NCBI GenBank assembly: GCA_963758515.1
Contig: CAVWVO010000001.1
Location: forward strand, 201,511 to 265,510
Length of the DNA: 64,000 nt
Origin: an uncultured Actinomycetota bacterium
GTDB lineage: Bacteria > Actinomycetota > Acidimicrobiia > Acidimicrobiales > Bog-793
Reading direction: 5' to 3'
A program made the position numbers and the translations under genes. This document shows positions 30,320-37,281 of this stretch, piece by piece (the first letter of the stretch is position 1; each line of letters opens with the position of its first letter). The notes beneath the pieces are model-generated. The model was not told the DNA's origin. It worked only from the letters and a program-made list of their open reading frames with translations, and searched no databases.

Positions 30320-31847
<1,528 letters not shown>

Positions 31848-34225: not shown

Positions 34226-34977
34226 AAAGACAAGTTGCGGCTCCGGTTGGGTAACCGACCGGATCAAACCCTGCTATTTGCTGGAAACCCCGTGTATCCG
34301 GCGGTACTCGTCCATGGTGGCGCTCTCGAGCGCTGTCACATCCTCTTCGTAGGGTGAGAGCCATGGGCAGTGACAATCCGTCCGGTGCGGACAATCAGCA
34401 GGAAAGGCCCAGTTCCTCAGACTGGTTGGATCGTGTCCCGTATGACCTGGGCAACTGGGTCGCGGGCTTCGTCGACGGAGAGGGGAGCTTCAACGTCCCC
34501 GTCCGTCGAGAGCGTGATCGCGGCTTGCCATGGCGAGTCTCGTTGTCGTTCAATGTCTCGCAGATCGGTCCGGAACTCCCTGAGCTCCTGAGGTCGGTCT
34601 TCGGGGTGGGAACGGTTCGAGGTCGTGGGGACGGCGTCTTCTACTTTGAAGTCACTCGTCCCGGGGCGCTCGCAGAGCGGGTCTTCCCGTTCTTTGAGCG
34701 CTTCCCACTGCGCAGTCCGAAGCGGACAGATCTTGCGATCTTCCGCAGATCACTGAGCTCATCCAGTCAGGCCGGCACCGTACGCCGGCGGGCATCGGAG
34801 AGATCCTCATCCTGAGGTCTCCGATGAACCGAGGCGGAAAGCGCCGGTACGACGAGCGCTACATCCTCGCCGTACTTGAGAGTTGGGAATCCTCAGAGGC
34901 CATACGCAGGGCTCCGTCTTTGAAGCAAGACGGATGAAGATATGGTCCACGCCCTATGGCGACATAGGGGTAACGGG
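34226..34977 (+). mobile_element. Group I intron after U1911 (E. coli numbering) of 23S rRNA, ORF-containing, 752 nt
   Basis: Exon ...ggcggccgT | intron ...taacggG | aactataacggt. Guide gcggct (34237-34242) pairs with exon GGCCGU including the U.G wobble. Q-like aatcagcagg, R-like tcagaggcc, S-like aagatatggtcc. The junction could formally slide by 1-2 nt (AA is ambiguous), but only this placement gives U(-1)/G(omega). Confidence 0.8.
34354..34937 (+). CDS. LAGLIDADG homing endonuclease (single-motif, I-CeuI-like), frame break near 34746-34749
   Basis: Track ORF 34354..34815: ...LGNWVAGFVDGEGSFNVPV...SLSFNVSQ...GVGTVRGRGDG...RVFPFFERFPLRSPKRTDLAIF. The -1 frame then continues ITELIQSGRHRTPAGIGEILILRSPMNRGGKRRYDERYILAVLESWESSEAIRRAPSLKQDG, with its stop at 34935-34937. 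The likely start is ATG 34363. Confidence 0.75.
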
Positions 34978-34989
34978 AACTATAACGGT

Positions 34990-35295
34990 CAACCCAGGCC
35001 GTGGGTAAACCTGGCTATATGCTGGAATCCCCGTGTATCCGGCGGTACTCGTTATCCATCCATGGCCTCTGGCCATAGATTGATGGCAGTGACAATCCGT
35101 CCGGTGCGGACAATCAGCAGGAAACCGCGTTGTACAGCGGGATCCTCAGAGACTGCACGCCAGGCCTGTCAGCCTTCGCTGGCGGTGAAGGTACAGTCCG
35201 ACCCTCGTGGCGACACGAGGAATCAGGCAGAAATGGCCTGATCACTCTTCGAAAAGGCTCGGGTAACTGAGCTCCAGAAGAGGAGTAACAACGTG
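34990..35295 (+). mobile_element. Group I intron after U1923 of 23S rRNA, ORF-less, 306 nt, paralogous to the 34226 intron
   Basis: Exon ...tataacggT | caaccc...aacgtG | cctaaggtagcgaaa. Guide gccgtg (34998-35003) pairs with exon ACGGU. It shares gctggaaNccccgtgtatccggcggtactcgt and ggcagtgacaatccgtccggtgcggacaatcagcaggaaa with the upstream intron. R-like tcagagactgca. Confidence 0.75.
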
Positions 35296-35675: not shown

Positions 35676-35859
35676 GTTGGCAATCAGCCGTCGAGTGCAA
35701 TGGCAAAAGGGAGCTTGACTGCGAGACCTACAAGTCGAGCAGGTGCGAAAGCAGGCCATAGTGATCCAGCGATTGCGTGTGGAAGCGTCGTTGCTCAACG
35801 GATAAAAGGTACCCCGGGGATAACAGGCTCATCTTCCCCAAGAGTCCATATCGACGGGA

Positions 35860-35905
<46 letters not shown>

Positions 35906-35906
35906 C

Positions 35907-35942
<36 letters not shown>

Positions 35943-35965
35943 TACGCGAGCTGGGTTTAGAACGT

Positions 35966-36684
35966 AGATCACTGCGTCCCCAGGGAGTAATCCCTGGGTG
36001 CTCACCGGCTCATATCGGTGGAACCCCGACTGATACACCCGAACTGTACGGTCAGGGCAATACCGAGGGAAGGCCAACACCGGTGAAAGTGTTGCAAGCG
36101 TCCTATGTTGCAGGATTTCTCGATGGCGATGGAAGTATCCACTTCCAGCTCGTCAAGCAGAAGGAGTATCGATTCGGGTACTACATCCGGTCGAGCGTCT
36201 CCTTCTCGCAGAGCACCTCCGCCAGAGGAGGCCTGGAGATCCTCCAGAGCCTCGTTGGCGGTGGCTACCTGCGGGATCGTGGTACCGGAATGAGTGACCT
36301 CGTTGTCACCAGCCGGCCGCTTCTGCTCGACTTGTTGCGCTCTCTCGAGCCGTTCGTGATCTTCAAAAGGGAGCACGTGCGGCGAGCTCTCGATCTGCTT
36401 CCCCGCCTTGGCGGGGTGCGTGATCCGGAGCGGTACCTGCAACTGGCACGTGAAGTCGACGCCTTTGCCACCCTAAACTATTCGAAGACGAAGCGGATAA
36501 CCGCCGTAGATGTTGAGCGACATCTACGTAGCATGGGAGTGTTGTGCCCCTGTAACGACTTCCTCGCTTGCCACAGCGGGGGGATGGCGTCAGAAGTAAT
36601 CATCTCACGGACGCCATGACACGCCGGCCCCTCGAAAGAGGGTGAAGGTATAGTCTATGCCCGTAGTAATACGGGAGTTTCATG
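35966..36684 (+). mobile_element. Group I intron at L2593 of 23S rRNA, ORF-containing, 719 nt
   Basis: Exon gggtttagaacgT | agatcactgcgtcc...gagtttcatG | cgtgagacagttcgg. Guide gcgtcc (35974-35979) pairs with exon AACGU/GAACGU. S-like aaggtatagtct near the 3' end. Same site as the Chlamydomonas chloroplast Cr.LSU intron. Confidence 0.85.
36083..36619 (+). CDS. LAGLIDADG homing endonuclease (single-motif, I-CreI-like)
   Basis: Track ORF 35918..36619 starts in the exon. GTG 36083 is 9 nt after gagggaagg. VLQASYVAGFLDGDGSIHFQL...GGGYLRDRGTGMSDLVV...LEPFVIFKREHV...ATLNYSKTKRITA parallels I-CreI YLAGFVDGDGSI...GVGYVRDRGSVSDYILS...LQPFLKLKQKQA...AALNDSKTRKTTS (from memory). Confidence 0.85.
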   Translation: MKVLQASYVAGFLDGDGSIHFQLVKQKEYRFGYYIRSSVSFSQSTSARGGLEILQSLVGGGYLRDRGTGMSDLVVTSRPLLLDLLRSLEPFVIFKREHVRRALDLLPRLGGVRDPERYLQLAREVDAFATLNYSKTKRITAVDVERHLRSMGVLCPCNDFLACHSGGMASEVIISRTP

Positions 36685-36826
36685 CGTGAGACAGTTCGGT
36701 CCCTATCCGGTGCAGCCGTAGGAGATCTGAGGAAGGCTGTCCCTAGTACGAGAGGACCGGGACGGACGCAGCTCTTGTGTGCCAGTTGTCTTGCCAAAGG
36801 CACGGCTGGTTTGCGACCTGCGGAAG

Positions 36827-36858
<32 letters not shown>

Positions 36859-37104
36859 TCGTTCCAAGATGAGATCTCCCACAGGGTTAACCTGGTAAGG
36901 CCCGTGGTCAGAACACCACGTTGATAGGCCGGAGGTGTAAGCACGGCAACGTGTTCAGCCGACCGGTACTAATCGGCCGAGGGCTTGGGGCTCGTGCTCG
37001 CTATGGAAGGCTCACAGGGGCGACGGTTCGTCGTCGTCCTGACGGCTGCTGATATGTCGGCTCCAGAACTGGAGGCTGCCCCTCAGCGGCCGGAAGAGCG
37101 AAAG

Positions 37105-37224
<120 letters not shown>

Positions 37225-37237
37225 TTGATCTGAGGAA

Positions 37238-37268
37238 GAGCCCCGTGCCGCTTGGCGCGGGGCTCTTT
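37238..37268 (+). terminator. Intrinsic terminator of the rRNA operon
   Basis: gagccccgtgcc gctt ggcgcggggctc (12-bp stem with one G.U) followed by ttt. Confidence 0.6.
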
Positions 37269-37281
37269 CGCCGTCCGGGCT

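Follow-up and report, generated by a model that had tools for sequence, protein, structure and literature searches.

A group I intron encoding an I-CreI-family protein at position 2593 of the 23S rRNA gene of an uncultured actinobacterium

An insert in the peptidyl-transferase loop of the 23S gene

The DNA analysed here, a stretch of 64,000 nucleotides (nt) from an uncultured actinobacterium that will be referred to as the window, contains one ribosomal RNA (rRNA) operon with a single 23S gene. The peptidyl-transferase loop of this gene is interrupted by an insert of 719 nt, which we consider, with high confidence, to belong to the L2593 lineage of mobile group I introns and to encode an I-CreI-family protein with a single LAGLIDADG motif. 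A preliminary description, made from the sequence alone, had proposed such an intron and gene in an actinobacterial-type 23S gene. This view is now supported by the position and boundaries of the insert, its co-varying RNA structure, the homology of the encoded protein to I-CreI including the catalytic Asp residue, purifying selection on this protein, and circle-type junctions in RNA contigs of related introns. When genomes were searched with the encoded protein as query, 79 loci were obtained, in 76 of which an insert ending in G is present at the identical site. Since independently assembled genomes share both the insert and its site, neither chance nor faulty assembly can explain it. The features that matter most are listed below; the rRNA genes were located by an Rfam scan of the window.

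30321-31841: 16S rRNA
32147 to about 36992, + strand: 23S rRNA gene, host of the intron (Rfam LSU_rRNA_bacteria)
35953-35965, + strand: final bases of the 5' exon, GGGUUUAGAACGU, closing with U2593, invariant in 76 loci
35966-36684, + strand: L2593 group I intron, 719 nt, first base A, last base G
36083-36619, + strand: homing endonuclease gene, GTG start, 178 codons, TGA stop
36684, + strand: omega-G, a G in 76/76 loci
36685-36699, + strand: start of the 3' exon, CGUGAGACAGUUCGG, C2594 onward
37108-37224: 5S rRNA

The peptidyl-transferase-loop exon gctgggtttagaacgt stops at 35965, and the 23S exon picks up again at 36685 as CGUGAGACAG / cgtgagacagttcgg. The boundary cannot be slid: a U precedes the insert and a G closes it. 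The exact split after U2593 by 719 nt ending in G, as given in the preliminary description, was correct on reading the sequence. For the E. coli numbering we take psi2580, A2602 and psi2604/2605 to be the anchors. In one of the relatives, an insert lies, according to the large-subunit rRNA model, exactly where GAACGU meets the 6 consensus positions that precede ACAGUU. By exon arithmetic, the exons of the window gene total about 3069 nt, the inserts being 34226-34977, 34990-35295 and 35966-36684. The segments 35953-35965 and 36685-36699 presumably represent the left and right halves of the homing site.

Structure of the intron RNA and its traces in metatranscriptomes

The structure of the intron was tested on a full-length alignment of the 76 introns, in which 72 base pairs were scored. 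Standard pairs were found in 97.8% of the cells, as compared to 34-44% when the pairing partners were slid by 1-3 columns, and both-side (compensatory) changes were observed in 36 of the 72 pairs. None of 500 shuffles matched any of the observed structure measures. The compensatory changes are distributed over P2, P3, P5, P6, P7.1, P7.2, P8 and P9, and the P1, P4 and P7 helices are invariant, as is expected for the core. The individual elements, all within or directly beside the intron, are as follows.

35969-35977, + strand: internal guide sequence, UCAC for P10 and GCGU for P1
35962-65 with 35974-77: P1, ACGU/GCGU, 4 bp, invariant in 76
35969-72 with 36686-89: P10, UCAC with 3' exon GUGA
35979-35998, + strand: P2 hairpin, CCCAGGGA-GUAA-UCCCUGGG, compensatory changes in 7/8 pairs
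36005-09 with 36623-27, + strand: P3, compensatory changes
36016-20 with 36061-65, + strand: P4, invariant
36025-31 with 36050-57, + strand: P5, compensatory changes
36067-78 with 36541-51, + strand: P6, compensatory changes; the 5' strand includes the Shine-Dalgarno (SD)-like GAGGGAAGG
within 36541-36560, + strand: J6/7, GUAAC, adjoining the P6 3' strand and the P7 5' strand
36557-60 (GACU) with 36652-55 (AGUC), + strand: P7
36561-66 with 36577-82, + strand: P7.1 peripheral hairpin, compensatory changes in 6/6 pairs
36584-91 with 36610-17, + strand: P7.2 peripheral hairpin, compensatory changes in 7/8 pairs
36629-42, + strand: P8, CCCUC-GAAA-GAGGG, compensatory changes
within 36623-36675, + strand: J8/7, UGAAGGUAU, between P8 and the P7 3' strand
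36660-75, + strand: P9, CCCGUA-GUAA-UACGGG, compensatory changes

Together these elements complete the canonical helix order, with the P3-P8 and P4-P6 domains and the P3/P7 pseudoknot. P7.1 and P7.2 lie between P7 and the 3' strand of P3, an architecture that is subgroup IA-like. RNAalifold, applied to the core after deletion of the open reading frame (ORF), found P2-P6, P7.1, P7.2, P8 and P9; P7, which is pseudoknotted with P3, was not found and was placed by hand via the invariant GACU/AGUC. An assignment of the two hairpins that follow the P6 3' strand as extensions of P6 was dropped, since the invariant AACGACU represents J6/7-P7, which makes these hairpins P7.1 and P7.2. The J8/7-P7 string GAAGGUAUAGUC matches the group I consensus gAAGAUAUAGUC of the Rfam model RF00028. 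The S-like element aaggtatagtc (36646-36656) of the preliminary description corresponds to J8/7 plus the P7 3' strand.

P1 is headed by a U35965.G35974 wobble at the splice site that is invariant in 76 sequences. The guide gcgtcc that had been recognised earlier is right in part: of these bases, only GCGU (35974-35977) are matched to the ACGU of the exon, while C35978 is mismatched to A35961. In 8 loci that carry C instead of U at exon position 2596, the middle A-U pair of P10 has changed to G-C. The guide thus tracks the exon, as would be expected if splicing is selected.

RNA evidence was obtained for relatives of the window intron. In the peat metatranscriptomes X7, X14 and X17, contigs were encountered that join the 3' end ...CAUG (omega-G) to intron nt 3-5. 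Such circle-type junctions occurred in at least 4 sequence variants in the RNA runs, in assembled contigs of related introns, and none were found in the DNA runs X1 and X13. They are consistent with circles formed from the excised ribozyme by attack of the omega-G near the 5' end of the intron, and we take these assembled contigs of relatives to support the view that the L2593 intron family is catalytically active in nature. Variants of L2593 introns from which the homing endonuclease is deleted were also seen as contigs in the RNA runs X7, X8, X14, X15 and X17.

Bacterial 23S genes are known to carry intervening sequences (IVSs), and it could be argued that the present insert, which RF00028 does not recognise, is such an IVS, excised by RNase III without religation, so that the 23S rRNA stays in pieces, as it does in Salmonella or Leptospira. 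Known IVSs are located in helices 25 and 45 and consist of one long hairpin. In contrast, the present insert sits in the peptidyl-transferase loop, has a full co-varying set of group I helices, a U.G pair at the 5' splice site, an omega-G and a guide that pairs with both exons, and carries a homing endonuclease gene; moreover, circle-type junctions at the omega-G occur in RNA contigs of relatives. We therefore regard an IVS as very improbable.

The encoded endonuclease, its relatives and its history

The homing endonuclease ORF starts in loop L6 and crosses the 3' strand of P6, the 5' strand of P7, P7.1 and P7.2. Its GTG start at 36083, which had been assigned from the sequence, is supported by the alignment, as 55 of the 76 relatives have an ATG in the aligned column. 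The SD-like sequence reported together with this start is indeed present, but it coincides with the invariant 5' strand of P6, so the resemblance to a ribosome-binding site may be a by-product; should the sequence serve as such a site, folding of the intron would mask it.

In a phmmer comparison with PDB sequences, the encoded protein matched I-CreI with an E-value of 8e-21, I-CvuI with 2e-18 and I-MsoI with 1e-14. Residues 12-154 of I-CreI align to residues 8-150 of the ORF, with 49 of 142 positions identical (34.5%) and two 1-residue indels, and Pfam LAGLIDADG_1 gives a single domain match within the 178 amino acids (aa). The assignment of a single-motif protein of about 178 aa to the I-CreI family, as given in the preliminary description, is therefore confirmed over its full length by this comparison, and the I-CreI matches of that description, YVAGFLDGDGSI, GYLRDRGTGMSD and ATLNYSKTKRITA, reappear in the HMMER alignment to PDB I-CreI. 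The I-CreI family consists of homodimers that cut an intron-less, 22-bp pseudo-palindromic target with 4-nt 3' overhangs, and the roles of the individual residues are known from the I-CreI literature. Equivalents of the catalytic D20 and of G19, Q47, K98, R68, R70, D75, K139/T140, Q26 and Y33 are kept in the ORF; those of R51, K28, S32, Q38, S40 and Q44 are altered. As about half of the base-contact residues of I-CreI differ, the earlier suggestion that the protein may be a new natural specificity variant of the I-CreI family is plausible.

Homologues of the ORF were found in 1055 metagenome protein clusters at E<=1e-3, the top matches being 75-83% identical. Among the 76 genomic copies, the ORF is intact in 50, and the remainder are disrupted by frameshifts or stop codons or have lost about 360 nt. 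Some of these frameshifts may be indel errors of long-read sequencing. The median ratio of nonsynonymous to synonymous substitution rates (dN/dS) over codons 2-150 of the 50 intact ORFs was 0.18, which shows that the protein is maintained by purifying selection.

Several variants of the element were encountered among the relatives. The introns of loci L074-L079 have lost about 360 nt (roughly codons 6-120 of the endonuclease) and that of L073 about 170 nt, in each case with the ribozyme core kept. The intron of L019 is without a 3' core, ending inside the ORF. With respect to annotation, a mechanical listing of the ORFs in the frames of 35700-36880 contains long spurious ORFs that span rRNA exon and intron, including a TTG ORF (35918-36619, 233 aa) that starts in the 23S exon and enters the endonuclease frame. 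The relatives of the endonuclease in protein databases measure 170-212 aa, and gene callers may be reporting over-extended versions.

The possibility has to be considered that the element is a fixed relic, which still splices but encodes a protein that is no nuclease (inactive, or a maturase) and is no longer mobile. The ORF is broken or deleted in 26 of the 76 relatives, the equivalent of R51 is Ala in the window ORF, a Tyr replaces the catalytic Asp in the Chloroflexi copy (L068), and the correlation of intron and exon distances described below (rho 0.90) is consistent with vertical descent. However, the window ORF is intact and retains the equivalents of the catalytic Asp, Q47 and K98; the dN/dS of 0.18 also speaks for a maintained function, though it would fit a maturase role equally well. 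Altogether, we consider a relic unlikely, but clearly less so than an IVS, and favour a mobile intron with a functional endonuclease gene.

Nearly all of the 79 loci belong to metagenome-assembled genomes (MAGs) from soil or peat that are labelled Acidimicrobiaceae or Acidimicrobiales; Actinomycetota or Frankiales labels are attached to a few, and one locus is from Chloroflexi. Many are located on long-read contigs of 0.4-5.5 Mb, and one on a complete chromosome. The GC content of the intron (0.58) equals that of the surrounding rRNA exons, and the third codon positions of the ORF have a GC content (GC3) of 0.68, as compared to 70% GC in the genome, whose nearest relatives in the search were Acidimicrobiales MAGs. 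For 26 loci with comparable exon segments, the distances between introns correlated with those between the host exons (Spearman 0.90). This correlation and the GC3 value indicate that the intron has resided in this clade for a long time, mainly by vertical descent. The preliminary description had called the pair of intron and endonuclease organelle-type and had taken it to point to horizontal movement. Both statements were too strong: pairs of this kind at L2593 have been found before in cyanobacteria (PMC1995217) and in the candidate phyla radiation (CPR; PMC11270868), and the rho of 0.90 and the GC3 of 0.68 at 70% GC speak for long vertical residence. A recent transfer from an organelle to a bacterium is thus not supported. 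Ancient transfers of L2593 elements between phyla are nevertheless likely, because these elements are spread over chloroplasts, cyanobacteria, CPR, a Chloroflexi MAG and Actinomycetota.

The same data bear on the question whether the insert might result from a chimeric assembly, or from plastid or cyanobacterial contamination in an actinobacterial rRNA operon. Metagenome rRNA operons are prone to misassembly, and no run of the exact genome was found for a check of the reads. On the other hand, the insert recurs across 76 assemblies made independently of each other, among them contigs of 1-5.5 Mb and a complete chromosome; its GC content of 0.58 is that of the rRNA exons; the flanking exons are contiguous and actinobacterial; and the divergence of the intron follows that of the host. 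The probability of a chimera or contamination is, in our opinion, negligible.

Some observations do weigh against the interpretation of the insert as an active, mobile group I intron. Since P1, P4 and P7 never vary, covariation is silent on these three helices. A cmsearch with RF00028, as suggested in the preliminary description, gave no match to the L2593 insert of the window, either at the gathering threshold or at E<=10, and was also blank at E<=10 on L076, a natural relative in which the ORF is deleted. The scans of the window with RF00028 did catch the upstream L1923 intron (52-53 bits). As RF00028 misses this intron type, its negative result is uninformative and the comparative structure is decisive; we read the miss as a limited sensitivity of the model for a subgroup with a long L6 and P7.1/P7.2. 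The public runs did not include this exact genome (best word shares of 0.19 and 0.10 for the intron and the 6-kb flank as queries). The circle-type junctions come from assembled contigs of relatives and not from raw reads of this organism. An exact 719-nt skip joint was rejected as evidence for splicing: DNA runs show the skip too, and the joint is uninformative because the intron-less 23S rRNA of other bacteria yields the same sequence. Lastly, R51 is replaced by Ala in the window ORF, although the adjacent R52 is kept, and this change, together with the fact that about one third of the related ORFs are broken, implies that some copies are decaying.

For the window copy, self-splicing, nuclease activity of the protein and the target of this nuclease are predicted by comparison, and the following course of events can be envisaged. 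The transcribed intron would fold, with the guide pairing to the last four exon bases and forming the U2593.G35974 wobble. The 5' splice site would be cut by an external guanosine, P10 (UCAC/GUGA) would align the 3' exon, and the exons would be ligated after the omega-G at 36684, thereby rebuilding the universal peptidyl-transferase-loop sequence. The excised intron might then circularise. A homodimer of the 178-aa protein would cut the intron-less 23S allele around the junction of ...GAACGU and CGUGAGACAG..., the candidate target being TTTAGAACGTCGTGAGACAGTTCGG, and repair from the intron-bearing copy would spread the element by homing.

Other introns in the 23S gene and comparison with known systems

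Two further group I introns are located upstream in the same 23S gene, separated by a micro-exon.

34226-34977: L1911 group I intron, 752 nt, after U1911 in the helix 69 stem, ends with G34977
34978-34989: micro-exon AACUAUAACGGU, 12 nt, A1912-U1923, helix 69 loop, between the two introns
34990-35295: L1923 group I intron, 306 nt, no ORF, after U1923; G35295 precedes CCUAAGGUAGCG

In the L1911 intron, a textbook guide pairs to the 5' exon GGCCGU through GCGGCU (34237-42), with a U.G pair at the splice site, and to the 3' exon AACU through AGUU (34233-36). This intron carries a LAGLIDADG_1 ORF of 153 aa (34354-34815, Pfam 3.9e-13) and is also present in loci L015, L023, L028, L054, L076 and L078. 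The site may be undescribed, as it is absent from the bacterial sites 1917, 1931, 1951/1952, 2593, 2604 and 2657 given in PMC1995217 and PMC11270868. The L1923 intron represents the sole RF00028 match in the window, with the 5' end of the model misaligned into the preceding intron; it occurs, with or without an ORF, in most related loci. U1923 is the site of I-CeuI. The cores of the L1911 and L1923 introns are strikingly alike (UGCUGGAA.CCCCGUGUAUCCGGCGGUACUCGU ... GGCAGUGACAAUCCGUCCGGUGCGGACAAUCAGCA), a resemblance that suggests a common origin. The micro-exon between them encodes the helix 69 loop, and both introns must leave correctly to rebuild helix 69.

The combination of introns varies among the relatives. 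Loci L001, L009, L025, L036, L038 and L075 contain an extra insert of 322-750 nt after CGUGAGACAGU (U2604), which ends in ...AAUG before UCGGUCCCUAUC, leaving an 11-nt micro-exon between L2593 and L2604; the window 23S gene is without this L2604 insert. In L048, L053, L054, L058, L068 and L071, the exon segment 1924-2593 measures 932-1597 nt as compared to about 670 in the window, which implies more inserts at further 23S sites in some relatives. At the other end of the operon, a GC-rich perfect hairpin (GGAAGAGCCCCGUGCC...GGCGCGGGGCUCUUUC, 37234-37269) lies directly 3' of the 5S gene and is probably the operon terminator; a sub-threshold match of this hairpin to the F6 small RNA model is a chance result.

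It is quite possible, although somewhat less likely than not, that the Acidimicrobiales of soil and peat form a hot-spot, so far unreported, for group I introns in rRNA genes beyond the CPR, with variable sets of L1911 (apparently undescribed), L1923, L2593 and L2604 introns and further inserts between 1924 and 2593. If so, exons of 11-12 nt would demand an ordered splicing of multiple introns around helix 69 and the peptidyl-transferase loop, and genes with such micro-exons would offer a natural system for ordered ribozyme splicing within one rRNA precursor. Likewise, the associated family of more than 1000 natural homologues of I-CreI, in which DNA-contact residues are altered, would constitute a panel of specificity variants; a large pool of I-CreI-like scaffolds with a near-identical core target and differing contacts could be of some use in meganuclease engineering. 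For genome annotation it is relevant that 23S genes gain 0.7-1.8 kb in length from such introns, that rRNA gene callers break on them, and that they can make protein-coding gene callers output spurious ORFs across rRNA.

The closest point of reference for the encoded protein is I-CreI, which is encoded by the Cr.LSU intron at the same rRNA position in the chloroplast 23S gene of Chlamydomonas reinhardtii. The two proteins are homologous over their full length (E 8e-21, 34.5% identity) and have in common the catalytic Asp and the DNA-contact residues R68, R70, D75, K139, T140, Q26 and Y33, whereas the equivalents of K28, S32, Q38, S40, Q44 and R51 are altered in the window protein. The central target AACGUCGUGAGACAG is identical and the outer target bases differ, being TTAGAAC...GTTCGG here and CAAAAC...GTTTGG there. 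Furthermore, P7.1/P7.2 code for a tail of about 25 aa at the C-terminus of the window protein. The host is a bacterium in the one case and an organelle in the other, and the likeness of the two elements is read from their proteins and their site.

Among bacteria, L2593 introns with single-motif LAGLIDADG genes have been described in the 23S genes of cyanobacteria (Haugen et al. 2007, PMC1995217), namely Synechococcus sp. C9, S. lividus C1 and Thermosynechococcus elongatus. The site is identical, and the sizes are similar, with introns of 744-748 nt and endonucleases of 159-189 aa there and 719 nt and 178 aa here. Judging from the published description (PMC1995217), the introns also have in common short P2 and P5 helices, P7.1/P7.2 and an ORF that enters the core from a peripheral loop. 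They differ in their hosts, which are thermophilic cyanobacteria in the one case and an Acidimicrobiales-like member of the Actinomycetota with 70% GC in the other, and the present family is very large, with more than 1000 metagenome protein clusters.

In CPR bacteria (Patescibacteria), inserts with LAGLIDADG_1 genes have been reported at 23S positions 1917, 1931, 1952, 2593, 2604 and 2657 (Tsurumaki et al. 2024, PMC11270868), and several introns per rRNA gene are possible (PMC11270868). The L2593 and L2604 sites are common to these bacteria and the loci studied here, whereas L1911 and L1923, which are used here, are absent from that list; moreover, the present hosts are free-living Actinomycetota with large genomes. 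The literature searched contained no report of such 23S introns in Acidimicrobiia or Actinobacteria. Bacterial L2593 introns with LAGLIDADG genes are already known, then, and it is the actinobacterial host group that is new: introns of this type that carry homing endonuclease genes extend to a third bacterial group, the Actinomycetota of high GC content, which abound in soil and peat.

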